64,000 nt of DNA from a virus, in the IMG/VR virus record IMGVR_UViG_3300010396_000006, positions 41,648 to 105,647 of that record, one strand, 5' to 3'. Positions 1,256 to 59,592 of this stretch are shown here, in pieces. Both the position numbers and the translations under genes were made by a program. A model generated the notes under the pieces. It searched no databases and was not told the DNA's origin. It was given only the letters and a program-made list of their open reading frames with translations. How positions within the stretch are numbered: position 1 is the stretch's first letter; every line of letters starts with the position of its first letter.

Positions 1256-1325
1256 AAATCTAGTTGATTTTCCGAAATGATGTCGATAGAGTCAGATCAC
1301 GCCGCTGATTCAGTAACATCGCGGT
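1256..1325 (+). promoter_or_regulatory. promoter module 1: AAATC-N5-GATTT operator, TTGATT-17-TAGAGT promoter, hairpin with TCAGTAAC loop
   Basis: Operator 1256-1270, -35 at 1264-1269, -10 at 1287-1292, hairpin 1301-1325; same layout recurs four more times. Confidence 0.65.
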
Positions 1326-1358
1326 GAACTTCTGAATCATTCTTGAAAGGAAATCGCC

Positions 1359-1640
1359 ATGTCTTTCGTTCTTAAACTCATTTCTTGGCCATTCAAGATT
1401 GTATTCGGAATCAGTCCGTTCGCGGGAATCGTTGTTTCGATGATATTGGTGGCCTATTTGTCAAAATCCGGCGCGGAGGTTGTGGCAATGCATCGAGAAA
1501 TGGCAGCCGCTGATGCGTGCGCTGAGCGAGAAAAACTCAGAGAAGATGAGAGGCGTCAGCAAGCATTGGACAATTGGCGACGGCGAGAAAACGAGACCCC
1601 CTCTTCTGATGATGGATATTCTGGATTGCATGATCGGTAG
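1359..1640 (+). CDS. small membrane protein
   Basis: Hydrophobic N-terminal segment, charged C-terminus, AAGGA RBS. Confidence 0.55.
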   Translation: MSFVLKLISWPFKIVFGISPFAGIVVSMILVAYLSKSGAEVVAMHREMAAADACAEREKLREDERRQQALDNWRRRENETPSSDDGYSGLHDR

Positions 1641-1651
1641 TTCACTGTAAG

Positions 1652-2230
1652 ATGAGACATCCTCAAGGAGTCAAGTCAGTGGCCGATTCATGGAACAACT
1701 GGGTAACCGAAAACATCCCCTATATCCGAAAGCAGTTGCTTTTAATCTGGGATAAAGCGTGTTTTGTCCAGAAGAAAGAAAGCGAATTGGAAGATCGCTT
1801 GGCCATTGACGAGCAGAAAGAGCAGACCGAGCAGGCGATGTTGCAGGCTCAAATCGACGAACTCAGTAAAAAGGTAGAAATTCTTATGACCGGACAAGCC
1901 GATTTCGCCGCCCAGCAAGCCGCCGTCGACGCGACGATGGATGCCTGTGCCACATTGCTTGGACAGACCGTGACGTTGCTGACTGGATTGGGATCTCTGA
2001 TCATCGGACTGCAAACGACCGTGACCAATCTTCAGTCGCAAGCGACCGAAGGCACGCAAGCGGATGCCGTATTCGAAGCCGCCGCCGTCGATCTCGGAAC
2101 GCACAAAGCAACTCTGCAAACCGCCCTCGACAATGCTCAGGCCGCGCTCAATACCGCCAGTTCGTTCGTTCCGCCGGCCCCACAAACCGATCCGAACGCT
2201 CCCGCAAACCAGAATCAATCGAGTACCTGA
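1652..2230 (+). CDS. coiled-coil hypothetical protein
   Basis: 192-aa Ala/Gln/Thr-rich helical ORF followed by a terminator. Confidence 0.55.
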   Translation: MRHPQGVKSVADSWNNWVTENIPYIRKQLLLIWDKACFVQKKESELEDRLAIDEQKEQTEQAMLQAQIDELSKKVEILMTGQADFAAQQAAVDATMDACATLLGQTVTLLTGLGSLIIGLQTTVTNLQSQATEGTQADAVFEAAAVDLGTHKATLQTALDNAQAALNTASSFVPPAPQTDPNAPANQNQSST

Positions 2231-2282
2231 ACGGTGCGCCCGGCCTAGATGCTGGGTGGCTTACTGGCTTCGGATGGCCAAG

Positions 2283-2322
2283 AATAGCGGGCTGAGAACT
2301 CTCCTCTTCAGCCCGCTATTTT
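2283..2322 (+). terminator. intrinsic terminator
   Basis: AATAGCGGGCTGA / TCAGCCCGCTATT inverted repeat followed by TTTT. Confidence 0.7.
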
Positions 2323-2349
2323 CACATCGGTACATCGAATGGATTCGCC

Positions 2350-2709
2350 ATGAACCCAAAGCGGGAATTGCTTCATCACCTTCATGCTGGCCGCTGTTTG
2401 TGGTGTAACTGCCAGACAAAGCTGGTTCGGCCAAAATGTTTTCACTCGCTTAAGGCGAATGCGTCAACGATCGATCATCTGATCAATAAGCTGGACAGGC
2501 CAGACCCGATGCAAGACGTGATCGTCAATGCCTGCAATCGTTGCAATGAGAGGCGTGGACGAGAGGCTACGCGGACTCAAACGGTTGAACAGCAGAAAGC
2601 ACGGGTCGCGTTAGACAAAGCCCTGTATCAAGCATGGCTGGCTCGCAACGATGTTCGGATGGGAGCCGTTGACACAGATCGGGAAAAACAACAAAGGGCC
2701 ACTGCATGA
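2350..2709 (+). CDS. HNH endonuclease
   Basis: CxxC...TIDH...ACxxCN motif; lies ~2 kb upstream of the terminase genes. Confidence 0.8.
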   Translation: MNPKRELLHHLHAGRCLWCNCQTKLVRPKCFHSLKANASTIDHLINKLDRPDPMQDVIVNACNRCNERRGREATRTQTVEQQKARVALDKALYQAWLARNDVRMGAVDTDREKQQRATA

Positions 2710-3203
2710 CGTTCAAAGTCGGCGATTTGGTTGAATGCATCGATAAAGATGCAATTCACGGCGTTGGGAATCGGTTCAATATTCTCGAAGTCAGTCCGGA
2801 CGGCCTGCACATTCGGATCGACGGAACTGGGCTCTGGTTGAAATCCAGATTCAAGCTTATTGAACCTAGTGAGAAATCCAGAGGGCAGCTTGCATGTGAG
2901 GCATTCGCGGCCCGGCGAAGAATTTCCGGGCATGACTATAGCGGCTGGAACCATCTGGATGTCAGCGAACAAGAGGCATGGGAAGCCGCCGCGATCGCAA
3001 ATCGAGAGATTCCCTCTCAATCGATCACGAAAGAGGAACTGGACGTCGTCGCGGCATTGAAGAGTGCCTACAACGCATACCAGAAGCTTGATCAACGCGA
3101 TGCCGATCAAGACGAGCATTTCCTACAGTCAATGGAAACATCTCTCCGGATCATCACGTTCCGCATCGCCAAACGAGTCAACCCAGAAGTCTGGGGTGAC
3201 TGA
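2706..3203 (+). CDS. hypothetical protein with an SH3/KOW-like 'FKVGDLV' N-domain
   Basis: Overlapping start/stop with the HNH gene; motif shared with ORF 9930. Confidence 0.55.
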   Translation: MTFKVGDLVECIDKDAIHGVGNRFNILEVSPDGLHIRIDGTGLWLKSRFKLIEPSEKSRGQLACEAFAARRRISGHDYSGWNHLDVSEQEAWEAAAIANREIPSQSITKEELDVVAALKSAYNAYQKLDQRDADQDEHFLQSMETSLRIITFRIAKRVNPEVWGD

Positions 3204-4175
3204 CAAAACCGAACCCCTTAAATCAAAGGGCAATTTTATGACAGAAATCGACGTTAATACTCTGTTCGCAGTTGGGGCCACTGTTCATCCGAAGGAAACC
3301 GGATTTGGATTGATTGCAGGTATACCGTATGGAATCGTGACTGTGACGCCGGAACCGACCGCACCGGGCGGCGCTGTTCTGACGCTCACGGGAATGGAGG
3401 CCGAAAAGCCATATTCACCGCATCTATTCATGGAATACGATCTGTGGCTCGCTGGAACCGAGAAGAAAAAGGCGGCAGACGCAAAACCAAAACTTCCCCC
3501 TATCCAAAAAATCGCGCAAGCGACTGGTTCACAACGATCCGTTGTGTTCGTCAAACTCGATACCGGTGTTTTCAAGGATGACCTATTCCCATCGATCCGA
3601 GCCGCAATTCAGCAGCAACTGATTGGATCATGCCTCGAAGGATGCGTGGTTATTGTCTACTCGCAAGCTGAAATCGCGATCGTCAGCGAGCATGCCGAAT
3701 CTGAGATCAAATCTGAATTCGACGAACCGTGGTATCCAATCTATAAATTCGATGCGCCACAATGGGAACACGTGTGGGTTAGATGCGAAGATGGAACAAC
3801 TCAACTGGCCTATTGCACGGGGGATGATGAGTTCATGACTCTCGAATCGAATATCGCAGCGCCAGATCTGATCAACGAAGTCACTCACTGGTCTAAATTC
3901 ATCAACAAGCAGTTCACGGAATAGATCCGATGGCCAAAATCGATCTGACCGACTTAGAGCAGATCCGGACGTCATGCCCGGTCTGCCTGGGTCGAGTCCA
4001 GAACTGCAATCACTGCGGCAATACGGGAAGAGTCTCATTCAATTCGGATGCTGAATGGCTTTCGGCACGTCGACGAGTCATCACCGATGAACAGCGGCGA
4101 CAGATGGACATGAGGCTCGGTCAACTGGCCGTTGTCGCCTATCTGACCGACGAACTGTATCAGTGAGGCTAATTC

Positions 4176-4463
4176 ATGCCGTTTCCTCAAATATCGCATC
4201 TGCAATTCAAAGTGCTGGCCTGCCTGATGAAAGGCGAGATGCACGGAAAGAACATTCGTCAAGCGATCGCGGCTGAAGGAGTGAAGCAGTCTAATCCAGC
4301 GTTCTACCAATTGATGGCCAGAATGGAGAAGGCTGATTACGTATCCAGCAGATATGACCAATCGATACACGATGGTATACCACTGACGGAATGCGTCTAT
4401 CGTATCACCAAAACAGGCCAAAAGACGGCCGAGTCAACCATCGAATTCTACTCCGCCAAGTAG
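4176..4463 (+). CDS. PadR-like winged-helix transcriptional regulator
   Basis: 'EMHGKNIRQAI...FYQLMARMEKADYVSS...VYRITKTG' matches the PadR pattern. Confidence 0.75.
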   Translation: MPFPQISHLQFKVLACLMKGEMHGKNIRQAIAAEGVKQSNPAFYQLMARMEKADYVSSRYDQSIHDGIPLTECVYRITKTGQKTAESTIEFYSAK

Positions 4464-4469
4464 TTAGAC

Positions 4470-4499
4470 TTGACGCAACCCCAAATACCTGAATAGAGT
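4470..4499 (+). promoter_or_regulatory. sigma70-like promoter upstream of terS
   Basis: TTGACG-18-TAGAGT. Confidence 0.55.
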
Positions 4500-4511
4500 C
4501 TGCACATGTCC

Positions 4512-4604
4512 ACCTGAAAAGGTCCGACACAGAACTCCTGAAAAGGACTTCGCCAAAGAACTCCCGAAACGGACTTCAACAGCAAGGGAACTCCAGAAAT
4601 GGAG
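4512..4604 (+). repeat. four tandem GAAA-loop mini-hairpins
   Basis: ACCTGAAAAGGT, GAACTCCTGAAAAGGACTTC, GAACTCCCGAAACGGACTTC, GAACTCCAGAAATGGAG. Confidence 0.8.
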
Positions 4605-5426
4605 GATAAGCTATCGTCTGCGGAGCGAAGGAAGCTCAGAAGGCAGTTAAAGGAACAAGGCGAATCAATACCCGCTGACCTAACGCCTAAGCCCAATCGT
4701 AAAGCCCATCTGGATAAACTCCCCAATACGGAAACAAAGACACCGAAGACGGAGAGTAAACCAAGGGGCCAAGCGAAGCCAAAGCCCAAAGCGAAAGCCA
4801 AGCCCAAGCCAAGAAAGACTGAGACAACACCGGCCGGTAATGAATCAGTCGATCAACAGAACGAGACGGAACAACCCAAGCCAGTCACGGTAGAAGCGGT
4901 CCCCGCTCCCGAGTCTGAAATCTCACCCGAATCTGTGTCGGGGGGATGGGGGGACGGTGGCAAATATGGTCCATCTGGTCTGACGAAAACGCACGAACAG
5001 CGGATGGTTGTCAGTTCATTCAATTGGCAAAACCGCAATCGATTCCCGCTGGAAAAGGCTGTTGACGAAAACCTGAAGATCGTTGATGCGGTTGATGGCA
5101 AGTCGGATGTCTATCAGGAAATCCTGACCACGACTGTCGAGATGATGAGATCGAAGTCGGCGAGGTCAAAGGGCATTGGATTGCGGGCCGGCGTTCAACT
5201 CGTGACGGCCGTGCAAAAAGACGACCATGCCAAGTTGAGGGCTGAACTGCGTCCGATGGTATTCACTCCTCCCTCCCCTGCGCCAGAGATGCCGGCTCCC
5301 GCAGTTCCGGCCCATGTCGACCAAAGCATGAACATCGATAACAGCCATCGCGTCGTGATCTTCAACATTCCGGATAACGGACGAGATCCACAATTGAAGG
5401 CGCAATTGACTGGGGCCGCTCAATGA
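4599..5426 (+). CDS. putative terminase small subunit
   Basis: Overlaps the terL start; ends with the 'VVIFNIPDNGRD' motif typical of TerS C-termini; Lys/Pro-rich N-terminus. Confidence 0.6.
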   Translation: MEDKLSSAERRKLRRQLKEQGESIPADLTPKPNRKAHLDKLPNTETKTPKTESKPRGQAKPKPKAKAKPKPRKTETTPAGNESVDQQNETEQPKPVTVEAVPAPESEISPESVSGGWGDGGKYGPSGLTKTHEQRMVVSSFNWQNRNRFPLEKAVDENLKIVDAVDGKSDVYQEILTTTVEMMRSKSARSKGIGLRAGVQLVTAVQKDDHAKLRAELRPMVFTPPSPAPEMPAPAVPAHVDQSMNIDNSHRVVIFNIPDNGRDPQLKAQLTGAAQ

Positions 5427-7150
5427 GTTCCGTTCTCGAACAGTACGGACCAAATGCGACGATCGTAGGACCGCAACCGGGTCCCCAGACTCAGGCCATG
5501 CAGAGCGCTGCCGATATCGTGATCATGGGTGGGGCGAACGGAGGGGGCAAATCGCATTGGATTCTGCTCGAAGCAGCGCGTCATGCCCGAGTGCCAGGAT
5601 ATCGAGCTGTCGTGTTCCGGCGTGAATCGACTGATATCACTGACCCCGGCGGACTCCAAGATACGTCGATGACGATCTATCCCCAGCTTGATGGATGGTT
5701 CCGATCCAACAAACTGGATTGGATATTCGATCCGGATGCTCGCATTTCATTCCGAGGACTGCCGCACGCCAAGGATGCTATCTCGTGGGATGGAAAAGAA
5801 CTGGCGTTCATCGGCTTTGATGAATTGCAATTGTTCACCGAATTTCAATTCTGGTATCTGTTCAGCCGCATGAGGTCCAGTTGCGGCGTCAACCCCGTTA
5901 TTCGAGCGACATGCAATCCCGTTCATGAGGAAGATCCGACCGGCGGATGGTTGAAGATCCTGATTGGCTGGTGGCTCAACTGGGAAACCGGGTTTCCAAT
6001 TCCAGAGCGATCCGGGAAAGTGCGATGGTTCGTGCGGTTGAACAATGAACTTCACTGGGGCGATTCCCGCGAAGAACTGATTGAGCGATTCACCGATCCG
6101 GACAGTAAAGAGGAAGGCCCAACCGTCTTTCCGATGTCGATCACGTTCATCCCGTCGAAGTTACGGGACAACCCGATACTGATGAACTCGTCGCCCCAGT
6201 ATCGAGCCAGCTTGATGGCGTTGCCGGACTATCTGAAGAAACAGAAATACGAAGGCAACTGGAACGCGAAACTTCAGGCCGGAACATTCTTCAAGATTGG
6301 TGTGATGGGCCGCAAAGGTCAGATCATTCCGATAGAGGAACTGCCGGCGATCGGCCTACGTTATTGCCGTGCCTGGGATCTGGCATACACGGAAGGGGCT
6401 GGAGACTGGACCGTTGGTGACTTATTGGCGACTGATGGGAAAGGAACATTTTATCTCATTGATCAAGTTCGTGGACAATGGGAATCAAGCAATCGCAATG
6501 ATCGAATGTTGGCAGTCGCCGCTGACGATGAAGAGAAATACGGTCGAGTCAAGATCTGCGTTCCACAAGATCCATCGGCCGGAACTGAAATTTGTGAGCG
6601 ACTGCTGAAAATGTTTGCCGGTTATTGGGTTGTCGGTCGAAGGCCAATCAAGAACAAGGCAGAGCGAGCGTCGGCTTATTCGTCGTCATTCAATGGCGGA
6701 AATGTGAAGTTCGTCAAAGCGCCATGGAATTCCGGATTGCTTCAACGAATGGATTCATTCCCGACGAAAGATATCCCAGATGATGAGATTGACGCATCTG
6801 CGGACGCCTATGAAGAACTCAGAGGCCCATCGCCTGGGGGAGCAATGGCTGATCAAAGTGCCGTTGCCAACCCGACAGAGAAGGAAAACGTCAATCCGTT
6901 CCGCGGGTTGCTGGAAAGCTATGTTCGCGAATTCTGGTCGACCATGTCGAAGAATGAACCAACCTGTCCCGAGTGGAAGGGATCGTTGGCAAGATTCGTT
7001 GATGATGTCGGTGAGCGCCCAAGCGACGATCACAAACTCGCAAGACGCGATCGCAACGAACTATGGGGTCCAGCAAACTTCTACTGGCAACTGGGCGATG
7101 AACCGCCTCCACCGATCAAAAGAGGCTGGGGCAAGGCAATGGCGGATTGA
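5423..7150 (+). CDS. terL: terminase large subunit (with C-terminal degenerate HNH-like extension)
   Basis: Walker A GGANGGGKS, Walker B FIGFDE, 'RATCNP', nuclease 'RAWDLA' and 'DDEIDASADA'. Confidence 0.95.
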   Translation: MSSVLEQYGPNATIVGPQPGPQTQAMQSAADIVIMGGANGGGKSHWILLEAARHARVPGYRAVVFRRESTDITDPGGLQDTSMTIYPQLDGWFRSNKLDWIFDPDARISFRGLPHAKDAISWDGKELAFIGFDELQLFTEFQFWYLFSRMRSSCGVNPVIRATCNPVHEEDPTGGWLKILIGWWLNWETGFPIPERSGKVRWFVRLNNELHWGDSREELIERFTDPDSKEEGPTVFPMSITFIPSKLRDNPILMNSSPQYRASLMALPDYLKKQKYEGNWNAKLQAGTFFKIGVMGRKGQIIPIEELPAIGLRYCRAWDLAYTEGAGDWTVGDLLATDGKGTFYLIDQVRGQWESSNRNDRMLAVAADDEEKYGRVKICVPQDPSAGTEICERLLKMFAGYWVVGRRPIKNKAERASAYSSSFNGGNVKFVKAPWNSGLLQRMDSFPTKDIPDDEIDASADAYEELRGPSPGGAMADQSAVANPTEKENVNPFRGLLESYVREFWSTMSKNEPTCPEWKGSLARFVDDVGERPSDDHKLARRDRNELWGPANFYWQLGDEPPPPIKRGWGKAMAD

Positions 7151-7210
7151 CAACGAAAATCTTTATGATTACCGTTGACGCCGTTCAGTTTCACCTCAAA
7201 GGGTTGCGGC

Positions 7211-7828
7211 ATGACAGGCGAAGAATACGACTTTGCTGATCGAGCGCTCAGTTTCATGGGCCGTTTGGATGCGTTACAAGCCGCTCAGTCGGAATGGTCT
7301 CAGCGAACATTCGGGTCAGATGAGAAGAGAGGTCCCCGCGGCCCGTTGCTTCATCTCGCCAAGGAGGCCGACGAAGCCGCTCAAGAGGAGGTCGGATCGG
7401 CCAAGCAACTGAAGGAATTCGGAGACGTATTCCTGTTGACCCTTGAGTCATTCCGGCGCGGAAAAAGAACGATCGATGAAGTTCTGGAAGCCGCAATTGC
7501 GAAGCATGCCGAAAACAGGCTTCGCGTATGGAATGTGATCGATGCGGAAGAACCAATCTTCCACAAGAAAGAACCGTCGTTTCGGATCAAGCCACTCGAA
7601 TGGCAGGATTCTCAGTTCGACGTCAATCTTAAAAGAGCCGAAACGATATTTGGATTCTATTGGGTGCAATACAATCCGATGTTTGAAACCGATTTCGCCT
7701 GGGGATTTCATTTCCACGATTTCACCGATGAAGAACAGCACTGTTGCATGTCGTTTGATCAGGGTAAGCAACTCGCCTGGGAGAACTGGCAGGAACGAAT
7801 CAAAAGCGCATTGATCGAGGCCGAGTGA
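7211..7828 (+). CDS. dATP/dGTP pyrophosphohydrolase-like (DUF550/MazG-like) protein
   Basis: 'EWSQRTFG...GPLLHLAKEADEA...EFGDVFLL...AKHAENRLRVW'. Confidence 0.75.
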   Translation: MTGEEYDFADRALSFMGRLDALQAAQSEWSQRTFGSDEKRGPRGPLLHLAKEADEAAQEEVGSAKQLKEFGDVFLLTLESFRRGKRTIDEVLEAAIAKHAENRLRVWNVIDAEEPIFHKKEPSFRIKPLEWQDSQFDVNLKRAETIFGFYWVQYNPMFETDFAWGFHFHDFTDEEQHCCMSFDQGKQLAWENWQERIKSALIEAE

Positions 7829-8183
7829 CGGCACTAATGCAGGAGACCGGAATGAGTAAGAAGCTGGACCGAGATCTATACACAGTGATCAAAATCATCA
7901 CGAATTTCTTGCCCGATGATGAATTGGGGCGGAAGATTGAAGGCGAATTGACTGATGTTCTTGAAAACACGAGATGGATTCCTCCAGAACTCCGATGGGA
8001 ATCGTGGGGAGAACTGATGTCCTGCCTAGATCGCAATCTGACAGGAAAATTTGAGACAGAACCTGTTTGGGTTAAAGCGATCCAGTCTGTCTGTAATGAC
8101 ACAAAGTTCATTTTGGAAAGCTAGACAAATGAAGCCGCTACTGAAATGGCTCATTCAGTTATTGGGTAGTTCCAAGTCATGGG

Positions 8184-9764: not shown

Positions 9765-9818
9765 ATCTGTCAGTCCGCTATTGCAAAAATCAGTAAGATT
9801 TCACAAGATGCCAATTAA

Positions 9819-21963: not shown

Positions 21964-22347
21964 ATGGCAACGAAAAATGGTCCCGAGAATATGTCTGAGT
22001 ACATCCGAGGATTGTTGAAAAGCGATCCAAGTCGAACGATGTCGAATGTGGTCGAGTGTCTGGCCGAAGACTATCCAGGCTACAAGGCCAACAAAGGAAG
22101 CCTGTCGGTCGGCTTTTACACGATGCGAAAGAAGCTCGGTATCACGTCAGGGCGCAAGGCTCGCGGCAAGTCACAACGGAAGCCGATCAAGGTTCATCGA
22201 CCAGTATCCATTCGTGGAGGGACGATAACCGGAGTCCGTCTTTCAATCGATCATCTGGCGTCTGCCGCAAAGTTCGTCGGTGAAGTCGGCGGGTTCAAAG
22301 CCGCGATTGAATCCGTCAAGCAAGTCCAGACGGTTCAGGTTCGCTGA
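21964..22347 (+). CDS. basic putative DNA-binding protein (planctomycete-type)
   Basis: 'MSEYIRGLL...' N-terminus, Lys/Arg-rich linker, C-terminal 'LASAAKFVGEVGG'. Confidence 0.55.
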   Translation: MATKNGPENMSEYIRGLLKSDPSRTMSNVVECLAEDYPGYKANKGSLSVGFYTMRKKLGITSGRKARGKSQRKPIKVHRPVSIRGGTITGVRLSIDHLASAAKFVGEVGGFKAAIESVKQVQTVQVR

Positions 22348-25051: not shown

Positions 25052-25157
25052 AAATCTTTTTGATTTTCCGATAAAATCGACGCCTCGATCTTGAATAGGA
25101 AAATCTTTCTGATTATCATCGGCCCATCGCAACGCGACTGATGACAGTAACCATCAG
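25052..25157 (+). promoter_or_regulatory. promoter module 3 (two operators)
   Basis: Operators at 25052 and 25101, TTGAAT-17-TATCAT, hairpin CTGATG-ACAGTAAC-CATCAG. Confidence 0.75.
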
Positions 25158-25199: not shown

Positions 25200-25946
25200 A
25201 TGTCTGAATCAACTCTCATTCTGCATCGTGGGGCCAAGATCGTCAGCCGTGAACAAGTGGCCGCTGTGCCTCTGATCGAATCGACCGATACCTATTTTCC
25301 GACGCCACATATCGAAGTCTTGGAAACCGCAGAGCGAACATTGAAGACCGCTGGATTCGAAATCAGCAAAAGCCAGTTGGCCTTGAGTGCTGACGGAGCC
25401 AGATTCTTCGGTACACTGGATCTGCAAAGTTCGATCGTCGAAGGCGTCTCGCTGGCGATAGGCGTTCGCAACTCGATCGACAAGATGTTCCCGATCTCCC
25501 TGACGGCCGGCTCCCGAGTGTTCGTTTGTGACAATCTGGCCTTCAGTTCAGAAATCTATGTGGCCAAGCGTCACACGAAGTTCGGGAAACTGCGATTCGA
25601 CGAAGGGATTGCGAAATCGATGCAATCGCTCGGTCAGTTCAAGCAACTAGAAGCGAAGCGGATCGAGCATTACCAAGCCTGTGAGATGACCGATCATCAG
25701 GCTGAATCATTCCTGTTGCGAGCGTATGAAGCCGAGATCCTGACTCACTTCACGTTGCCAACCGCGATCAAGGAATGGCGCAAGCCGAGTCATGAGGAAT
25801 TCGCCAAGCGAAATGCGTGGTGTGCTTTCAACGCGATCACGGAAAGTCTGAAGGTACGACAGAGCAATCCTCAGAAGTTCGCTGGCCTGACGATGAAGCT
25901 ATACGGGTTGCTTGATTCGACGGTCGGATTCAGTACTGCGATCTAG
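25200..25946 (+). CDS. DUF932-family protein
   Basis: 'DGARFFG...IGVRNSIDK...AGSRVFVCDNL...KRHT...NAWCAFNAITE'. Confidence 0.8.
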   Translation: MSESTLILHRGAKIVSREQVAAVPLIESTDTYFPTPHIEVLETAERTLKTAGFEISKSQLALSADGARFFGTLDLQSSIVEGVSLAIGVRNSIDKMFPISLTAGSRVFVCDNLAFSSEIYVAKRHTKFGKLRFDEGIAKSMQSLGQFKQLEAKRIEHYQACEMTDHQAESFLLRAYEAEILTHFTLPTAIKEWRKPSHEEFAKRNAWCAFNAITESLKVRQSNPQKFAGLTMKLYGLLDSTVGFSTAI

Positions 25947-41466: not shown

Positions 41467-42664
41467 GCTCGAATTTGCGAAGGTTCCATTATGGCCGAGA
41501 ACGAAACCGCAGTTGTCGACAGCGATGAATCACCAAGGGGTAAAGGCAAGAAGCCGTCCAAGGGCAAGACCATTAGTCACGCTCGCGACATCTTCACGGC
41601 CACCATCGCTCATCACGGCGGCACGACGAGTCCCGAAGGCTTGGCGATGCAATGCTTCGTCTACGCGGCGGCGTTCGAGAAGGCGGAAGGGCAGTTTCAA
41701 AACGACACGCTGATTCTGCCACCAAAAATCGACGTCTTCGACATTGCCCATGCGCCCAATCTGCCGGAAACCCATCCGACCAATATGGTGTCCCAAAAAT
41801 ACGGCAAGATCGAAGACATCTTGGAAACGATGGACGATCTGTCGAAGCTGGATCGGACCGACTGGGGCAAGGCGTCATCGGACACCGTTCTGTATCCGAA
41901 GCGGAAATGGACGCGGCCGATGATCAACCAAGCCGAACAATTGTTTCCCGGCGTGTTGACGCGGGCCGAACGATTGAAAAAGGCTCAACAGGAAGTCGAC
42001 GAACAAGCCGCGGAAACCAAAGCCGCGGCCTCGAACTGATCGGTTGATTCCGGTCTGATGGCGTTGAATTGACCAAGAGGAAATCCTGCAAAGCGAGTTG
42101 ATCATGGTTGAAGTGAAATCCGAGGCCGATGCGGTTGTCGTTCCGCCTCCAAAGTCACTCGGTCAAATCGCCTATGAGGCATGGTGTGCCGTTCACGACG
42201 GCGCTCAGATGAGTCAGTTCGGGCATCCCGCTTGGTCGGTCACAGACGACAATGGGATTGTGAGAAACAACCCCGCGTTGCCGTCAATTGTGCGTTTGTC
42301 ATGGGAAGCCGCTGCGATCGCTGTGCAGGATGCGGAAAAGCCGACAACGACTCTTCAAGACGTCTCGCCTCATCAAGCGGTTGTGTCCGTCAGCGAAGAC
42401 CTGAAGGCCAAAGCGGACGCCTTGAAAGTGGCGATGAAAGCCACAATCGAAGTTCCGGAAGTCCCCGTGACGATCGAGCCATCTAAGCCGGCAGATCATC
42501 AGGCCGTTGTTACGGCGAGCGAAGATCTGAAGTCCAGCGCCGACGCAATGAAGGCCGCGGCTGAATCGGCTCCGTCCGAAACGCCGCCGGCTGAAAAACC
42601 CGCGGTGTCCGCTCCGTCCCGTCCGGGTGCGTCAACGCTCAATTGAGGGAGGATCTGAACTCCT

Positions 42665-50176: not shown

Positions 50177-50938
50177 ATGGCAGCTAGTACGCAATTTTTC
50201 TACGGTGACTTCTTGCATCAGGACAAATCCACGAACTTCAACGGGATTCAGCGGAATCTCGTATTGGGGCCGAACGGACGCGCCTATCTGATGCAAGAGA
50301 CGTGGAATGTCTTGGCTCGCTGGATTGATTTGCAAGGCGGTGGGGCTGACGAACTCCAAGGTTATCTGGGTGAGATGCGACAAGCCTATTCGCGGAATGG
50401 GCAACCTTGCGGATTCGCCGGCACGAACTGGCTTATGGACCCCGCTAGATCAGTTGGGGGACCAGTCGTTCTTGGTCAGCCAGGTCATTCGATGCTACGC
50501 GGCGTCGACGGTATCAACTATCTCGAAGTCACCGTTGCGATTCAGAATACAACGCTATTCCAAGATTCCTATCCGGGAGCATCGCCAGGAACTTTGACGT
50601 CCTTTGAGGAAACAACCTCGTTTACAGACAATGCCGGACTGCCGATCTTCGTTGAGCGAATTCCGCAGAATGGTCTGCCGATACTGCAACAGGTCTCGAC
50701 CAATTCATGGTACTTCGGAACGCAAGCCGGATCGGCGACATCGACAGTAACTTGGCCATCACCTGCGGCGGCTTTATTTCCAGGGGCGGCGAGAACTTCA
50801 GGGAATGCTGCTCAGGGCGTCACCTACAAGAGTCCAAAAATGATCCGTGGCGTGCCAGTCGAATATACGACGACTTGGAAGTACGAATACATTTCCGCAA
50901 CACCGTTCCTCAGCCAACTGCCAAATACTCAAGGATAA
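50177..50938 (+). CDS. putative distal tail protein
   Basis: Position directly after the tape measure gene. Confidence 0.45.
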   Translation: MAASTQFFYGDFLHQDKSTNFNGIQRNLVLGPNGRAYLMQETWNVLARWIDLQGGGADELQGYLGEMRQAYSRNGQPCGFAGTNWLMDPARSVGGPVVLGQPGHSMLRGVDGINYLEVTVAIQNTTLFQDSYPGASPGTLTSFEETTSFTDNAGLPIFVERIPQNGLPILQQVSTNSWYFGTQAGSATSTVTWPSPAAALFPGAARTSGNAAQGVTYKSPKMIRGVPVEYTTTWKYEYISATPFLSQLPNTQG

Positions 50939-52204: not shown

Positions 52205-54013
52205 ATGACAACAATTAACTTTGGCGCATGGGAATATCCCGGTATCCAAGTGTATGACTCCGTTCGATTCACGGACGTCAGCGGGATCTCGCCATCGGTT
52301 TGCGTCGTGCGAGTCTTTCCGCAATACGGCTGGCCTGATCGCATTGGTGACATGGTTTTCACCTACAACGCGAATCAGATCGTGATTCCCGGATGCACAA
52401 TCGACAATGCCTCGTTCCAGCGAAACAGCGGCGGAAAAATTGTCAGCGTCCGCATTCTGGACTCACGCTGGCGATGGGCCTACGGTCAAATCACGTTGCG
52501 AGCCAATGTCCGACTGCCGAATAACTTCGTTGATCCATTGCATGAGAAGACGCCACAAGAGATCGCGACACTCTGTTTCATTGCGATGGGGGAAACAAGT
52601 TTCGACGTCTCGGCATTGCCATCGGATGCCCGGCCCGATATCGACTGGGAATCGGAAAATCCCGCTCAGTGTCTGGCACAGATGTGCGATGACCTGGGCT
52701 GTCGGATTGTGCCGCGCAGGTCTGATGCAACCTGGGTGATCTGCCAGACGGGCGTCGGAAATCCCTTACCGGATAATCTTCCGTATCAAGACGGCGGCGA
52801 TGGCATCGACCCGAAAGAGATTCCTGATTTTCTCCAGATTGTGACGGCTCCCGTGAACTATCAGGTCGCTTTGCCGATGGAACCGATCGGTCGTGACTTA
52901 GATCAATCGTGGCTTCCGGCGCAGGAACTTAGCTACTGTCCGAATCCAGATAATACCTATGACGTGGCTTACGGGTATGGGTTGGAACCGTCGACGATGT
53001 GCAACCTCAGCAATACGCGGGTTTTGCAAGCGGACGGAACGGCTGTTAGCGCCCGCGAAATCGCCCGTACCTATCTCTATCGCTCGTGGAGGATCAAGAC
53101 GCCGTTTTCGAATGGACAGCGACTCATCCTTGGTTTCCCGACCATGTATATCAACGGATACGATGGTTACGTCTGCCGCAAGCAGATCATCCTGACCGAC
53201 AAGTTAGCTCAGTGCTACACCGATGAACGCGGCGAGATTCATCCCCGGCCGGCCTATATGTTCGGCGAATTTGAATCCCGCGTCTCACCGCAGATCAATT
53301 ATCCGCCGGGAACACGCATCGACTATCAATCACCCAACGTCGACAAGTATCCCGAGGAACGGAGTTCCTTCAATCTGAATGCCGATCCACTGGATACGGA
53401 CCGCTCGATCGTCACGACGTCCAGGCAAATGACGTTCATCACAAAGAACATCGCACAGCCAGATGGCACGACACGAACTCGATATGACTTCGCGAAACTG
53501 TTCTACGTTTGTGCGATCCAGATCCGAGACCCCGACACATGGCAACCGATCCGTTATTTCCGTTTCCGACAGATCAGCGACAGTCCGAATCCTGATCCGA
53601 CCAACGTCGCTACGATCGTCAAGAACGACATTCAGCCGTGGTTCATCAATCTCTACAACCCGGACGGAACATGGTCATCGAATACCAACAACAGCGATGA
53701 CGTGAATAATCAATGCGATTACTACCTTGATCAGATTCAGCAGACGTTCATGACGATCTCAACGCAAACGCGAACCTATATCGGCCTATTCCCGATCGAC
53801 ATGGACGGAGCGATTCAACAGGTGACGTACGAGATCGGCAAGCAAGGCACAAACACGATCGCGTCGAACGGCACGGAACATAATTTCGACATTCCAACGT
53901 ATGCCGAACGGCGACAGCGCGACGGTCGTCACAACATTCAGCAGAAGTTGCGATTGAAGGCCGAAATTGAATCCCGGCGTCAAGCCACGAAAGGCACGTT
54001 CAACACGTTGTAA
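52205..54013 (+). CDS. putative tail tip/hub protein
   Basis: 602 aa; 'ILDSRWRW', 'PDIDWE..NPAQCL', 'DGAIQQVTYEI'; tail module context. Confidence 0.55.
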   Translation: MTTINFGAWEYPGIQVYDSVRFTDVSGISPSVCVVRVFPQYGWPDRIGDMVFTYNANQIVIPGCTIDNASFQRNSGGKIVSVRILDSRWRWAYGQITLRANVRLPNNFVDPLHEKTPQEIATLCFIAMGETSFDVSALPSDARPDIDWESENPAQCLAQMCDDLGCRIVPRRSDATWVICQTGVGNPLPDNLPYQDGGDGIDPKEIPDFLQIVTAPVNYQVALPMEPIGRDLDQSWLPAQELSYCPNPDNTYDVAYGYGLEPSTMCNLSNTRVLQADGTAVSAREIARTYLYRSWRIKTPFSNGQRLILGFPTMYINGYDGYVCRKQIILTDKLAQCYTDERGEIHPRPAYMFGEFESRVSPQINYPPGTRIDYQSPNVDKYPEERSSFNLNADPLDTDRSIVTTSRQMTFITKNIAQPDGTTRTRYDFAKLFYVCAIQIRDPDTWQPIRYFRFRQISDSPNPDPTNVATIVKNDIQPWFINLYNPDGTWSSNTNNSDDVNNQCDYYLDQIQQTFMTISTQTRTYIGLFPIDMDGAIQQVTYEIGKQGTNTIASNGTEHNFDIPTYAERRQRDGRHNIQQKLRLKAEIESRRQATKGTFNTL

Positions 54014-54021
54014 ATTGAACT

Positions 54022-54714
54022 ATGAGTGACTTAGCGCCAGTTCGCGGAGTGATGATTCAGAACGATTCGGGGATGAACATTCCACCGAATTCGGTCGTTG
54101 TTGTGACGTTCGTAGAATACACGACTGGAGACGCAAACAACGATCCGGAAGTGATCCATCATGTCACGCAATACAGCGGACAAAGCGGGAATTTTCTCGT
54201 TACGGGCGATACAGACATTCCGGCAGGGGCAACTGGCGGCACATCAGGTGACGCTGAAGAAACTCCGCGTGCGTCGCTATCGAGAGCCTATTCCGACTCA
54301 TTCATCTATGTGGCAATTGACCCCGGTGTCGCGGTTCCTACTGCTGGAGAACAATGGTCCCCAGTTAGTGGGAAATGGTATTTAAGCAGGGGTGGGAGTG
54401 GTTTTAATGCTCAAGGTGGCGCGTTTGGACCATCAGGAAATCAGATCGCAATCTTCAACCGCATTGCGGCGGCATCTCAAGGACAGATATTCCACGGCGA
54501 ATTGACATCAACCTGTTCGGTGGCGACCAATTCCAGGAGTGGTTCTACGACCTGCACCGTCCAGGCATATGTTGGCACGGGTTCAACGACGCTAAGCGGA
54601 ACAGACATCACCGTCACAAATCGCTCCCTGACAATGAATGGATTGCCAGGTGCATATGCATTCTGGACCCAGATTGGCAGCGAGACAGTGCTATTGGGAG
54701 TCGATTGCCCATGA
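54022..54714 (+). CDS. putative tail-associated protein
   Basis: Context; Gly/Thr/Ser-rich. Confidence 0.45.
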   Translation: MSDLAPVRGVMIQNDSGMNIPPNSVVVVTFVEYTTGDANNDPEVIHHVTQYSGQSGNFLVTGDTDIPAGATGGTSGDAEETPRASLSRAYSDSFIYVAIDPGVAVPTAGEQWSPVSGKWYLSRGGSGFNAQGGAFGPSGNQIAIFNRIAAASQGQIFHGELTSTCSVATNSRSGSTTCTVQAYVGTGSTTLSGTDITVTNRSLTMNGLPGAYAFWTQIGSETVLLGVDCP

Positions 54715-55721
54715 TGGGATTTGGTCAATGCTGCGGCTCCTGCGGTAGCGGCGGAGGTGTATATAATGTGATGAAGATCGATCCTTCAAACGGCTCGATC
54801 ATTTGGACGTCTTTGGCTGTTGGAACCAGTCCCGGCGCTAAACGGGCCTTCAGGGTGCTACCGCTGACCGGCACTAACGATGTCATGGTCAGTTGCGACG
54901 TCAACGCGATTTGTCGCATGGACAGCACCGGCGCTGAGATTTGGCATTACGACGACCAGTTCTCGGACCCCGCGAGGCGAACATTCTCAGTTGATACATC
55001 GCTAGGCCGAATAATTGGGCTCAATGTTTACCCTGCCAACTTCAGTTTCTCTCAAGGGTTTTACAGCATTGATTTCAGCGGCGTAATCGATTGGAAGATG
55101 AGTTACACCGGATCGGTTGCCATCAATAATGTGATGTCGGTTGTTGCGGCCGGAGGCATCGCGATATTTTGCACAAATGAAACCTTTGGCCAGTATTTCG
55201 GGGTTGCGACCGCAACTATCCCTCAACTGTTCACGAATTCTGTCACCACACTTTATTCTACGCCAACCCCAGGGATATTCGCCTATTGTTGTTTTGATGG
55301 TTCCGGCAACGCAGTCGCCACGAACGCGACAGTCGTTCCATCGACCGGAGTTGGGACGTTTTTTTCTCCAGCAACAAACAATCTAAACATCCAGTCTGGC
55401 GGCGGTAAGTTTAGCGCCAACAGCCCCAACGCGATCTCTGCACCACCCCTTTTTCGCGGCGGATCGTCTCTTCCACTCCTCTCCGGGACGGGTCCGGGCG
55501 CAATTGGCACAAGCACTACAAACCCGACCGTATCCGATACGTGCTGCGATTCGGCGCAATATTACTTTGTCACGTCGCCGATGGCCGGACTCGGCAATAT
55601 CATCGCACTGGATTCGTCGTTTAATCTCGTCTGGTCCCAAACGTATGGCCCGACAAGCAGCCACAACCCTACCGGTTGCTGTATTTCCGATGACGGATAT
55701 CTCTATGTCTGCGGAAATTAA
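54705..55721 (+). CDS. beta-propeller (PQQ-like) protein, candidate receptor-binding protein
   Basis: Repeated 'D..G.I(I/D)W' blades, 'DGYLYVCG' end, Cys-rich N-terminus. Confidence 0.55.
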   Translation: MPMMGFGQCCGSCGSGGGVYNVMKIDPSNGSIIWTSLAVGTSPGAKRAFRVLPLTGTNDVMVSCDVNAICRMDSTGAEIWHYDDQFSDPARRTFSVDTSLGRIIGLNVYPANFSFSQGFYSIDFSGVIDWKMSYTGSVAINNVMSVVAAGGIAIFCTNETFGQYFGVATATIPQLFTNSVTTLYSTPTPGIFAYCCFDGSGNAVATNATVVPSTGVGTFFSPATNNLNIQSGGGKFSANSPNAISAPPLFRGGSSLPLLSGTGPGAIGTSTTNPTVSDTCCDSAQYYFVTSPMAGLGNIIALDSSFNLVWSQTYGPTSSHNPTGCCISDDGYLYVCGN

Positions 55722-55917
55722 GCAGCGCATCGATCGCGGACCCTGCGGTCATCGCGGCGAGTCATTCGACTCCGAGGTGTGCGATTTGTGCGGGATCAAG
55801 GGGCAGATTGTCCCGATCTTCTCATGCGATCGATACACGAAATGCGTCCTGAATCGCCATCGCCAGCGACAACTGATCCGCAATTGTTTACTTTGCGATG
55901 ACTTTGAACCAACCTAA
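55705..55917 (+). CDS. small Cys-rich protein ending the tail operon
   Basis: 'CGHRG...CDLCG...C...C...CLLCDD'. Confidence 0.5.
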   Translation: MSAEIKQRIDRGPCGHRGESFDSEVCDLCGIKGQIVPIFSCDRYTKCVLNRHRQRQLIRNCLLCDDFEPT

Positions 55918-56039
55918 CCATCACCTCAATGCTGCCTTTGAGTAGGCAGCCCAGCAGCCCCGCAATGAGGATTATGGCCAGAAATCACGATTTTCAGAGA
56001 ATTGCTTGAAAATTCACACGAAGTCTGTTTAGACTCCCG

Positions 56040-56147
56040 TTGCAATCTGGTGCCTCAGACTGCAAAATACCTTTCGAATACCGGGTTCGCCCGTGTTCAA
56101 TAAGCCGTTTCAACCTGAGGCACCGGGTTGTACGGCTTTTTTCTTTT
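56040..56147 (+). ncRNA. kissing-loop terminator/attenuator RNA 2
   Basis: Promoter TTGAAA-18-TAGACT (56006-56035); 5' hairpin with GGTGCCTCAG; UUCG hairpin; terminator carrying CTGAGGCACC, then T-tract. Confidence 0.65.
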
Positions 56148-56987
56148 CTAGCCATCACAGATCAACCAGATGTCGCGTGCGACGGATCTTGATCGTGACT
56201 CTGTGGAATCGAATCCAGCCAAAGCGATGGGAACTGGGTTCGCGGTAAAACGGGTGCAATCCCCTCCCGTTGGATGGTCGCTCGTTGCATCCAACGAATC
56301 CGCCTGCTGGATGGCCATACGGTCTGATGCGGAAAAGTTCACAGTGAATCCCCGCTTCCATCCATCTTTATTGATTGGAGGGGAGGGGGAGGAACTGTGG
56401 AGACAACTGGACGTCCACCGATCGCTGCGGAATAGTTTGTGGTAGTCTTTTCTCCGAATCTTTCTTCTCTTCAAAGAAGATCAATGATTCCAGTTTGATT
56501 AGGGAAACAACCAGATGGCAATTGAGATTACAGAACAATGGTTGATGGACAATCGAACCGAACGTGGGGCATGGACTCGGGCGCAACTGAAAATCATTGG
56601 CGTTGGATGGCCACCAACGAACGGCTGGAAAAAGCGTGTCATCGGAACATTGATCAGCGACATTGAGGCAAAAGCATTTCGAGATTCACGGGCGATTACT
56701 GGAACGAGTCGCGAACGTCGGAGAACGTGGAGATCACTTCAGTCGACATTGCCAACGGAGCCTGAAGTAAAGCCGAACATTCCGGGTTCTGAAAACATCC
56801 AAGCCAAAAAGACACGAGTCAGTCTGGCCGTTAAAGAACTCCGGTTGGCGCTCGCTGACCTGGGGTCTCCGGATATGAAATTGATCGACGATATGTTGAT
56901 GGCCGTTTTAAGATGGTTAGTCAGTCAAAGACCGACGACTGTTGGCAGGCCAGAGATTTCCATCAATTCACATTCGGAGCAGAGAAA

Positions 56988-57221
56988 ATGAGCCAATCCG
57001 AAGATCTCGGCGAAACGGTGATTCCATTCGGCAGACACAAGGGCCAGAAGATGTCGGCAATTCAGCGTGACTATCTGGAGTTCATCGTTGAGAATAAATA
57101 TGGACCGCCTCACTGGCTGAAAAAGATTGCGGCGTTTCTGTGGCCGGAAGAAACTGCAAAGTCAGGTCGCAGTCAATCCGAGCGAGACATGGACCGCGAA
57201 TTCAAAGGGATCATCGGATGA
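56988..57221 (+). CDS. DUF3820-like 'PFGKHKG' protein
   Basis: 'IPFGRHKGQKMSAIQRDYLEF'. Confidence 0.7.
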   Translation: MSQSEDLGETVIPFGRHKGQKMSAIQRDYLEFIVENKYGPPHWLKKIAAFLWPEETAKSGRSQSERDMDREFKGIIG

Positions 57222-57863
57222 GAAAATGGAAAACGTGGATCAGGAAACTGCTCAGAAAGCGCCGCCGGCCATTCGCCAAAGGTGATTTCGTTTGGCATCG
57301 CGAATTGGGCCACGGCGGCAGAGTTCAGAGCGCCCTATTGGACGAGGGCAATTGGTACTATTGCGTGGAAATACGATGTCATCCGAGATCAATCCTGGGA
57401 GCCGGTTCGAAAATCGTTGACGAGTGGCGAGACTCGGAGATCCTTTAAAAGCATCAAGGACATTTCGGATGACACAAGACCTATCAACAGCCGTTCAGAC
57501 AGAAATCAAGGCAATCGACAGCGAGAAATTCTTTCAAGCCATCAGGCTGAAAGATTACGTCTGCGTTCAAAACATCGCTGGCGACATCATGATGGTTGTG
57601 TCGAGGGAAGAGTTCCGATTTCAAGGCTGCGACGTCGTAGCGTTTTCTCTGTCGCCTGAACTATTGTTGTCAGTGGGGCCGATGCGAATTCAGTGCAGTT
57701 CGATAGAAACCGCCCGGCAAGTTGCTTCGGAGATCTGGCGACAACTTCAATTCGCGAATGGGACCCATCCATCGCAAACCGTGTATCGAACCGATCGAGG
57801 GAAAGAATTCTCGTTTGATCAACTTCGCCAAACTGGACTGGCTTCGATTCTGTATTGAAAAAT

Positions 57864-57935
57864 GCGAGAGTAGCTCAATGGTAGAGCAGGCAACTCATAA
57901 TTGTTTTGTTGGAGGTTCGAATCCTCCCTCTCGCA
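57864..57935 (+). tRNA. tRNA with CAT anticodon (elongator Met or Ile2)
   Basis: Acceptor GCGAGAG/CTCTCGC, D-arm GCTC/GAGC, anticodon loop CTCATAA, T-arm GGAGG-TTCGAAT-CCTCC; CCA not encoded. Confidence 0.92.
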
Positions 57936-59210
57936 ATCGACTCGGGAAGTCTCGTTGCTCGTCAGTGCATCGAGTTTGATCCATGTTGGTTCAATTGGCG
58001 AGACTTCCCTTTTGAAATAGAAAGCTGATTCGATGAACTACTTGATCGGCGATGTTGTCACATGGCTTGAGAATCCGCATCCCGGCCTTGCGGGAGGAAG
58101 CAACATAGAATTCTCGGGGCGAGTGATCGGACTGGATCGTGAAAATCTCATGCTATCAGTCTGGCCATCCGAAGACTGTTCAATCATTGATCGAGACGTC
58201 GTCGTGTTCTTGAAATGGGTCGGCGATCACTTTGAGAGATTCTGACCGTTTTTGTGTCCCTTGTTTCCCTTTCTTGTCTCCCTTGTTGGAAAATCCAAGA
58301 AAAAGGCTTGCAATATGCCGGATAAATGGCCAGACAAACCAGACGGTCCCGGATGGTTCTGGGTGGGAAGTTCACCCGCGACTCAACCGGTTATCGTTCG
58401 AGTGTTCGAGACATCTCGGGGCCTGATGTTCAATGACACGGCTCATGGCGGTGGACACGTTCAAGATCTGTCGTGCGCCAGATGGAAGCGAATTCCACAA
58501 GAGGAATTTCAAGAATGACTGAAGATCAAGATCAAGAACACGAATTCGAAATGGTAATGCCATTCTGGATTGATACGGATGCCTATTCTCAACGAGATCG
58601 AGAGATGTTCACCGCGGGCGTTGAGTTCGAACAGGTTCGTCAACATTTCAGCAATCCGTCATTCACTGGAACAACGATCCTGAGAGAAAACGAGTCTCGG
58701 ATTCGGATGATGGCCGGGCACCTCGGCAGAGCGGTCAAGATCAGTCCATGCGAACCGGAGCATGATCCAGATGGAACATGGTCATACCTAGAAGTAGCGC
58801 CTGATCTGCAAGAAGGAAAATCAGATGATTGAAATCGGGTTCGTGTTGTTGCTTGTCATCGTCTGCGGAATCGTCTGGCTCAAGTTCCGCAAACATCCTC
58901 CAATGTCATTGGAAGATCAGATTGAAGAAGCGATGGTCTTAGGGTGCTGGCGCACCGGCAAGACGCTCATTGGCAATCTGAATGATCGCGGAGAACTCAA
59001 GATCACTGTCATTGAGGATGACGAATCGTGACGATCCAAGAAGTTCTTGACGAGATCGAAAAACAAAAACGGACCTATCGGCAATCGATGGCCAATAAGT
59101 CCGCTGATGAGCAAGAATATTTCAGGTGTTCCTGCGATGCTCTATTGAGAATTGAGAACTGGATCACGGAACAACTGAGAGTCGAGAAGCTTCTGGAATC
59201 GTTGCCGTGA

Positions 59211-59393
59211 TCACTTACCGTCGTTGATCTGTGCCGACAGTACGTCGTGTTTCTCTTTCCATCGGTCGGCATTCGCCTGGGCAACGGCCGCATCCGCTTT
59301 CGCCTGATCCGCTCCAATCTTCGCAATCGTGATATTGACGCTGTGATGAACGACTCCCGCCACGACAACGCCAATCAAAATCCCTGTCAACAT
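59211..59393 (-). CDS. small reverse-strand membrane-anchored protein
   Basis: N-terminal TM helix plus short coiled coil; GGAGG RBS on the minus strand. Confidence 0.5.
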   Translation of the reverse strand: MLTGILIGVVVAGVVHHSVNITIAKIGADQAKADAAVAQANADRWKEKHDVLSAQINDGK

Positions 59394-59511
59394 GAAAACC
59401 TCCCATTCGCTTGAGTGAAAACTGAAAGCCCGGCAAGATTCTACGCCAGCCGATGGACGCCTGCGAACTGAAATCGACGTCAGAATCCGGCATCCCGAAA
59501 GAAATTTACGA

Positions 59512-59592
59512 AAATCAGTAAGATTTCAGTAGACAGAATCAAAAACTGTCGATAGACTCTGAATCAGTTCGCGGTTGTCAGTAACCAGCCGT
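59512..59592 (+). promoter_or_regulatory. promoter module 5
   Basis: AAATC-AGTAA-GATTT, TAGACA-17-TAGACT, hairpin CGGTTG-TCAGTAAC-CAGCCG. Confidence 0.75.

Follow-up and report, generated by a model that had tools for sequence, protein, structure and literature searches.

The described systems closest to the element analysed here are of three kinds. The nut sites of lambdoid phages (boxA plus boxB, working with N and the Nus factors) combine a promoter-proximal leader hairpin, in which the loop is constant and the stem is free to vary, with a nearby linear motif. The PeSL cassettes of the T4-type phages RB49 and phi1 are repeated composites of a strong sigma-70-type promoter and a stem-loop ahead of mostly orphan genes, and their conserved G-run/C-run stems act as terminators of upstream transcription (PMC2839356). 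In loop-loop antisense control, as exerted by RNA I/RNA II of ColE1 and CopA/CopT of R1 (reviews: PMC7357161, PMC2879510), two RNAs recognise each other through perfectly complementary loop bases. The element in question is a leader hairpin with a variable stem and an invariant CAGUAAC loop, found directly behind promoters of an uncultured phage known from soil metagenome DNA. The window, i.e. the whole stretch analysed, comprises the right 64 kb (bases 41648-105647) of the 105,647-bp IMG/VR record IMGVR_UViG_3300010396_000006, which has a 123-bp terminal repeat; positions are those of the window unless they are given as genome positions, which refer to the complete record.

All copies of the cassette follow one order: an inverted repeat AAATC-N5-GATTT, the -35 and -10 boxes of a sigma-70-type promoter (with a spacing of 17-18 nt in the five cassettes of the window) and the hairpin with its CAGUAAC loop (Table 1). 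The 7-mer CAGTAAC occurs on the + strand of the window at 1311, 21913, 25145, 33670 and 59579, and additionally at 50745, inside a coding sequence, with neither a promoter nor a hairpin. Outside the window, the genome contains three further cassettes of the same build (genome 1359, 13669 and 20075), which makes eight in total, as well as one more copy of the 7-mer that lacks promoter context; neither of the two contextless copies folds. The bare number of 7-mers is unremarkable genome-wide (10 forward copies, against 8 and 10 for a reversed-word control). The non-random feature is thus the context and not the count, because eight of the ten forward copies are linked to promoters and seven of these eight possess stable hairpins (-7.9 to -13.0 kcal/mol with the 7-mer kept unpaired; 7.7% of random genome positions attain -6 kcal/mol). 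The first-pass annotation, which had reported five promoters followed by a hairpin with a differing yet paired stem and a constant CAGTAAC, is confirmed by folding, shuffling and covariation and extended to eight sites. The stems that it listed (CTGATG/CATCAG, TCAGTTG/CAACTGA and CGGTTG/CAGCCG) were found as described, the last one with one U.G pair, and the two that it called imperfect correspond to CCGC-u-GAT/ATCGCGG and to GCGGG/CCCGC with a large loop. The positions it gave for the -10 boxes (1301, 21902 etc.) are actually those of the hairpin 5' arms.

Aligned in a fixed register, which puts the three sites of larger loop size at a disadvantage, the eight sites have 67.9% of their cells paired versus 43.7% in shuffles. 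The covariation score in this register is 0.546 versus 0.159 in shuffles, none of 500 shuffles attains the observed value, and slid registers yield only 0.03-0.18; the material behind these values is eight paralogous copies. A covariance model built on the eight hairpins, a check the earlier annotation had proposed together with the covariation analysis, retrieves just those eight in the phage genome, with scores of 18.7-32.5 bits. The CAGUAAC-bearing loops range from 8 to 15 nt across the sites, the basic form being the 8-nt N-CAGUAAC. At all eight sites the loop lies 18-25 nt past the -10 box, whereas the distance from the loop to the ATG varies between 23 and 163 nt (38-48 nt in five of the eight leaders; 23, 57 and 163 nt in the remaining three). 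Since the former distance is constant and the latter is not, the hairpin is tied to the 5' end of the transcript and not to the ribosome site. Stems that vary and still pair imply, in turn, that a single-stranded hairpin is required. We conclude that the shared leader element with its variable paired stem and constant loop is a real common tag of the phage messages, and this combination is characteristic of single-stranded hairpins that one partner recognises by sequence.

A comparison with a second strain bears on the nature of the active molecule. Another soil run contains a ~90%-identical strain at low depth, represented in this comparison by one contig with a depth of ~4. In its version of the genome-20075 leader, the CAGTAAC is unchanged and one stem pair differs (U-A to U.G). 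In the structured leader beyond this hairpin, seven of the eight changes at paired sites keep the pairing (among the differences listed), four of them via G.U, while one pair shows a compensatory change from G.U to C-G. Because G.U pairs function solely on the + strand transcript, this pattern argues for a selected RNA structure on that strand and points to an element that acts as RNA made from the + strand.

Two further motifs recur in the cassettes. The inverted repeat, in its longer form (G)AAATC-N5-GATTT(C), is present at every hairpin promoter, either 3 nt upstream of the -35 box, over it, or in the spacer; these placements suggest a genome-wide operator of the repressor type. At three orphan repeats of the window (Table 1) no good -35/-10 pair was found by eye, hence every complete promoter with the inverted repeat has the hairpin. 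Four copies of the repeat have a spacer that reads AGTAA on one or the other strand, giving TCAGTAAG, which resembles the loop TCAGTAAC. The other motif, ATTCT, lies 10-21 nt past the loop 7-mer in five of the eight leaders (background 5% per search window, p 1.7e-5), and two more leaders have GTCTTTC or CCTCTT in its place. As a separate observation, one contig of the source run leaves the genome-13603 promoter at its inverted repeat (genome 13617) and continues directly in the promoter at window 59530 (window 59529), and the two cassettes have the 18-nt sequence GAAAATCAGTAAGATTTC in common at the join. This could reflect a branch in the assembly or a recombination event between promoter cassettes; a contig that joins two cassettes at a shared repeat recalls PeSL-mediated recombination.

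Table 1. Coordinates of the promoter cassettes, orphan inverted repeats, terminator-like hairpins and loop complement (window positions, except where genome is indicated).
Feature	Start	End	Strand	Remarks
Cassette 1 inverted repeat, GAAAAATC-TAGTT-GATTTTC	1253	1272	+	overlaps -35 TTGATT (1264-1269)
Cassette 1 -10 hexamer, TAGAGT	1287	1292	+	17-nt spacer
Leader hairpin 1, CCGC-u-GAT / loop UCAGUAAC / AUCGCGG	1302	1324	+	-10.8 kcal/mol, shuffle p 0.008, 25.4 bits
ATTCTT 3' of hairpin 1	1339	1344	+	ATG of the first open reading frame at 1359
Terminator-like hairpin, GCGGGCTGAG..CTTCAGCCCGC + TATTTT	2287	2316	+	two open reading frames past tagged promoter 1
Orphan inverted repeat	7154	7172		
Orphan inverted repeat	9784	9802		
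Terminator-like hairpin, T-run	9865	9903	+	17 bp, -22 kcal/mol, the strongest in the genome; just ahead of a 582-aa gene
Terminator-like hairpin	14279	14310	+	portal polyprotein gene 20 nt downstream; no consensus promoter found behind the hairpin
Orphan inverted repeat	21060	21077		
Cassette 2 inverted repeat, AAATC-TTACT-GATTT	21841	21855	+	
Cassette 2 promoter, TTGACA-18-TAGCAT	21859	21888	+	
Leader hairpin 2, GCGGG / large loop with CAGUAAC / CCCGC	21902	21926	+	-7.9 kcal/mol, p 0.08, 25.2 bits; weakest in the window
ATTCT 3' of hairpin 2	21930	21934	+	
Terminator-like hairpin + TTCTTTT	22363	22384	+	directly past the first open reading frame of tagged operon 2
Cassette 3 upstream inverted repeat, AAATC-TTTTT-GATTT	25052	25066	+	
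Cassette 3 promoter, TTGAAT-17-TATCAT	25091	25119	+	second inverted repeat (25101-25115) within the spacer
Leader hairpin 3, CUGAUG / ACAGUAAC / CAUCAG	25138	25157	+	-10.7 kcal/mol, p 0.002, 29.2 bits
ATTCT 3' of hairpin 3	25166	25170	+	ATG of the DUF932 gene at 25200
Cassette 4 inverted repeat, AAATC-TTATA-GATTT	33601	33615	+	
Cassette 4 promoter, TTGACA-17-TAGGAT	33619	33647	+	
Leader hairpin 4, UCAGUUG / ACAGUAAC / CAACUGA	33662	33683	+	p 0.008, 32.5 bits
Terminator-like hairpin	41434	41457	+	past the capsid gene
Cassette 5 inverted repeat, AAATC-AGTAA-GATTT	59512	59526	+	
Cassette 5 promoter, TAGACA-17-TAGACT	59530	59558	+	
Leader hairpin 5, CGGUUG / UCAGUAAC / CAGCCG	59572	59591	+	one U.G pair; -13.0 kcal/mol, p 0, 28.1 bits
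GUUACUG as 8-nt hairpin loop, AGUUACUG	genome 20125	genome 20131	+	50 nt past a CAGUAAC hairpin (outside the window)

The hairpin had been proposed to be a protein-bound antitermination leader, analogous to boxB of lambda. This reading is partly supported. The transcribed leader element is upheld by the covariation, the promoter-linked position and the U-A to U.G change, whereas the 8-nt loop and the failure to find an N, Q or NusG family speak against antitermination. In lambda-type nut sites, a GNRA-like loop of 5 nt (GAAAA, GAAGA, GACAA) closes the short boxB stem, whereas the loops of this phage span 8-15 nt and contain CAGUAAC. Neither the lambda boxA (CGCUCUUA) nor a host rrn boxA was found 5' of the hairpin; the sole recurrent linear motif, ATTCT, is located 3' of it, so that the order is hairpin followed by linear motif, as in rrn leaders, while boxA precedes boxB in lambdoid nut sites. 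Moreover, there are eight sites per genome here as opposed to two in lambdoid phages, and no N homologue was found. As the loop type and the order and sequence of boxA disagree, the hairpin is not a member of the boxB family. Antitermination of the Q type or of the RfaH/ops type finds no better match, since neither a Q protein (PF06530) nor a NusG paralogue (PF02357) was identified in a six-frame search of the phage genome. The likeness to the PeSL cassettes lies in the repeated composite of strong sigma-70-type promoter and stem-loop before mostly orphan genes. However, the PeSL stem-loop occupies varying places with respect to the -35 and -10 boxes (PMC2839356), whereas here it is always 3' of the -10, and the PeSL stem is conserved, while in this phage the stem varies, the loop is fixed and no U-tract follows. 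An intrinsic terminator was rejected as a reading of the tag hairpin on the same ground, the missing U-tract on its 3' side. Other candidates were discarded as well: a -10-like pause element (TAACNN has no T at position 6), an integron attC core (RYYYAAC does not match) and pairing with the host 16S RNA (the loop complement is absent from the Schlesneria 16S loci).

From the observed cassette anatomy, hairpins, covariation, strand-specific RNA signature and second motif, we infer a scheme of start sites, protein reader, antitermination and anti-tag. We tentatively prefer, among readings none of which is probable by itself, that the hairpin may be an antitermination tag comparable to that of lambda N and boxB and read by a protein that is probably encoded by the phage. 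The host sigma-70 RNA polymerase would start ~7 nt past the -10 box, as judged from the promoter consensus, and the first 2-35 nt of each message would fold in such a way that the stem is free to vary and the loop exposes CAGUAAC. One sequence-specific reader, most likely a phage protein, would bind the loop as the RNA leaves the polymerase, whereupon the tagged transcripts would pass the strong terminators one or two genes downstream and ahead of the portal gene; ATTCT would add a linear component to the hairpin. The leader at genome 20075, that of the replication operon, has in addition a loop with the complementary GUUACUG and an internal terminator-like hairpin; we read this as a cis anti-tag, which would compete with the reader and set the threshold of read-through. 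A phage-encoded reader is favoured because the hairpin is not used by the host family (151 Planctomycetaceae genomes), and as no phage sigma family was found (Sigma70_r2, family search of the phage genome), the host polymerase would have to be steered otherwise. The corresponding search for a T7-type RNA_pol family gave no match, but its control also matched nowhere, hence it is uninformative.

The placement of the terminator-like hairpins (Table 1) and the ATTCT motif provide circumstantial support for antitermination. Terminators shortly downstream of promoters are common to this phage and to the lambdoid nut systems, and a tag in the nascent RNA that modifies the polymerase fits the anatomy; the layout resembles that of lambda pL-nutL-N-tL1. 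To this extent the anatomy agrees with the analogy drawn by the first-pass annotation, whereas the resemblance of the second motif to boxA is weak: ATTCT(T) matches the Schlesneria rrn boxA GATCTTTGAAAAC with a p of only 0.02, a value confounded by start-codon contexts, the comparison with the E. coli and lambda boxA gave p 0.05-0.2, and boxA was rejected as a reading of ATTCT for its weak likeness to the Schlesneria rrn sequence (AGATCTTTGAAAACA). A number of other results likewise speak against antitermination. Terminator-like hairpins are overall no more numerous than in shuffled sequence, and near five of the eight tagged units there is no strong one. The 8-nt loop differs from the GNRA-like pentaloop of boxB, the six-frame search found neither NusG nor Phage_antitermQ in the phage genome, and no match to an N family was obtained. 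Pfam and PHROGs analysis of 20 proteins encoded behind the tags identified just DUF932 and PHROGs of unknown function, i.e. orphans, and the covariation comes from paralogous copies and one low-depth strain, as no relative with the element was found. Among the listed sequencing runs with the phage there are no RNA-seq runs.

P0124 (127 aa, window 21964-22347), encoded by the first open reading frame (ORF) of tagged operon 2, has an isoelectric point of ~10.6 and a basic linker RKARGKSQRKP; according to an Atlas look-up, its look-alikes are hypothetical proteins found throughout the Planctomycetota, and its N-terminus is weakly helix-turn-helix-like. It is more likely a DNA binder, which counts against the antitermination reading, and might be a regulator that acts on the inverted repeat. 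With regard to an Arg-rich antiterminator of the N type, the small early proteins gave no family matches; P0125 is the one with an Arg-rich N-terminus, which is doubtful, however, since the Atlas record begins at residue 31; the Atlas look-up gave no usable match for it. We also observed that the orphan inverted repeat at 9784-9802 lies within 65 nt upstream of the strongest terminator-like hairpin, and the segment 9784-9903 may act as an attenuator or as a checkpoint composed of operator and terminator.

The genome contains an RNA partner of the tag, a possibility that the first-pass annotation had not considered. GTTACTG, the complement of the loop 7-mer, has two + strand copies in 105 kb, and one of them forms the 8-nt hairpin loop AGUUACUG in the leader of the replication operon. 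It is part of a 140-nt ORF-free domain (genome 20088-20230) with a 19-bp closing stem (-80 kcal/mol, z -6.1), which sits between the hairpin at genome 20075 and a gene for an SNF2-like helicase; the leader also includes an internal terminator-like hairpin, followed by UAUUUUCU. An Rfam E-value search of this leader returned nothing better than E ~1. In the ~90% strain, both 7-mers are intact amid at least 11 substitutions and one single-base deletion across ~130 nt, the compensatory G.U to C-G change falls in the stem that closes the GUUACUG loop, and the unpaired eighth base of this loop is changed from A to G. In both loops, the conserved part is thus exactly the seven complementary bases, whereas the additional 5' base can vary. 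In the ensemble of the full-length leader, CAGUAAC and GUUACUG are both mostly unpaired loops, whereas in the form ending at the leader's internal terminator-like hairpin they are paired with each other in cis at minimum energy (-42.9 vs -40.6 kcal/mol). This difference between the two predicted forms makes a cis anti-tag more likely than a trans-acting regulator as the role of GUUACUG. The two loops share with the loop-loop antisense systems the display of complementary bases, seven of them and perfectly matched, in the loops of two stable hairpins. Contrary to those systems, there is one anti-loop here, located on the same molecule as one of the tags, and the loop contact is not continued by a longer antisense duplex. 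As with the c4 RNA of P1, the anti-loop RNA derives from the leader of an operon that belongs to the regulated set.

The same complement is central to an alternative in which the GUUACUG leader, or a small RNA made from the genome-20040 promoter, pairs in trans with the tags of the seven other operons and alters their stability, translation or elongation. Such kissing-loop control agrees with the rarity of GTTACTG on the + strand and the position of one copy in a hairpin loop of a very stable ORF-free leader, for which a rough estimate of chance occurrence is ~0.005-0.02, as well as with the retention of both 7-mers in the second strain next to a compensatory change in the anti-loop stem and with the openness of both loops in the full-length ensemble. 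However, it depends on a single anti-loop that was recognised after the fact, and the nearest partner of this loop is the tag on the same molecule, so that the predicted cis pairing would mask a trans-acting loop. The 7-bp CAGUAAC/GUUACUG duplex contributes a mere -6.7 kcal/mol, family searches of the phage genome yielded neither Hfq nor ProQ, and a single RNA would need to titrate seven abundant messages; we regard this explanation as unlikely. Its strictest version, an RNA-only regulon in which a small RNA of the replication operon would kiss the CAGUAAC tags of all other operons and would be masked in cis by its own tag until processing, appears more improbable still.

Somewhat better, although also rather unlikely, is a role of the hairpin in the stability or translation of the messages, where it would guard them against 5'-end-dependent decay and a protein bound to the loop would mark them for protection, ribosome loading or timed repression, in the manner of the T4 gp43 and RegA operators or the coat-protein operators of MS2 and PP7. 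The hairpin starts ~2-12 nt from the predicted 5' end, and 5'-terminal stem-loops are known to block this type of decay, e.g. in the ompA and T7 phi10 leaders; the 38-48 nt between loop and ATG in five of the eight leaders would likewise suit a stabiliser or an operator. Yet an invariant 7-nt loop is not needed for stabilisation alone, the loop-to-ATG spacing varies (the three remaining leaders deviate), and the hairpin leaves the Shine-Dalgarno sequence and the start codon free in every case. Finally, CAGTAAC might be an asymmetric, strand-oriented site recognised on double-stranded or non-template DNA, like the 'stoperators' of mycobacteriophage L5 or the ops element of RfaH, with an incidental complementarity of the flanks. 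The strictly orientation-specific and promoter-proximal occurrence of the motif would be in line with this, and the cassettes already include a DNA operator, the inverted repeat. A DNA site nevertheless fails to explain why seven of the eight flanks fold stably with different, compensating sequences and why there are U.G pairs, which are functional on one strand alone; moreover, the hairpin of 20-25 nt is longer than the single-stranded part of a transcription bubble, and no member of the NusG/RfaH family was found in the phage genome. We consider this explanation very improbable.

No relatives of the tag were found. The Rfam gathering-score search of the window reported tRNA as the sole match, in agreement with the first-pass annotation, which did not recognise the type of the element. 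The search of related phage genomes that it had proposed revealed none with the hairpin: a megablast of 25 kb against the INPHARED phages gave no match, and the relatives of the capsid protein (at most 66% identical: a 76-kb IMG/VR contig and prophages of Schlesneria sp. T3-172 and of a Planctomycetaceae metagenome-assembled genome) contain no CAGTAAC hairpins, no inverted repeat and no other enriched intergenic 7-mer. Relatives of the helicase (52-69% identical) were found at 21 IMG/VR and 37 JGI metagenome loci, and the upstream regions of 20 of the IMG/VR relatives contain no such leader. A pattern scan of IMG/VR with operator plus CAGTAAC reported at least 118 matches, single chance ones, the scan with a 19-mer of the structured leader found one chance match in a coding sequence, and the covariance model retrieved three single matches without context from 151 Planctomycetaceae genomes. 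No relative with the element was thus identified in INPHARED, in IMG/VR (by protein or pattern) or in these 151 genomes.

All long ORFs of the window are on the + strand. They encode, among others, a T4-type large terminase, an HK97-type capsid protein and a 2235-aa portal protein fused to polyvalent-protein domains. The initial remark that small non-structural genes are clustered behind each hairpin is broadly correct, but the tagged operons extend further, to the genes for terminase, portal and capsid. A planctomycete is the probable host, because the nearest relatives of the capsid protein include the prophages of Schlesneria sp. T3-172 and the Planctomycetaceae genome; two further members of the capsid cluster are a nearly identical contig of 105,665 bp and a variant of 2.2 kb. 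ARAGORN reported genes for tRNA-Val (cac) at 42159-42241 and tRNA-Met (cat) at 57863-57936, of which the latter alone is supported by the Rfam gathering score. Two other segments deserve mention. At 4470-4598 there is a promoter-like TTGACG-18-TAGAGT with neither inverted repeat nor hairpin, and its leader contains three ~24-nt direct repeats (AACTCCTGAAAAGGACTTCGCCAAAG-like) ahead of the ORF that precedes the large terminase, which may be a recognition array for a small terminase or a pac array. At 55982-56150, AAATC-AC-GATTT (the half-sites with a 2-nt spacer) and a promoter-like TTGAAA-18-TAGACT are followed by a ~110-nt ORF-free stretch with a long-range pairing TGGTGCCTCAG/CTGAGGCACC and a hairpin that has TTTTTTCTTTT after it; this segment is a candidate small RNA gene.

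The tag of this phage stands out by its association with an operator repeat, with ATTCT as a second motif and with a complement of the loop encoded in the genome. If it recruits an antiterminator, it would represent a nut-like system outside the lambdoid phages, with a different RNA code and present at every operon, in a phage whose probable host phylum, the Planctomycetota, is poorly studied. If, on the other hand, the reader is the phage's own GUUACUG RNA, the tags would constitute a genome-wide kissing-loop regulon, in which one riboregulator times the whole transcription programme. Whichever of these is true, the hairpin is a defined 20-nt bait for finding its reader.

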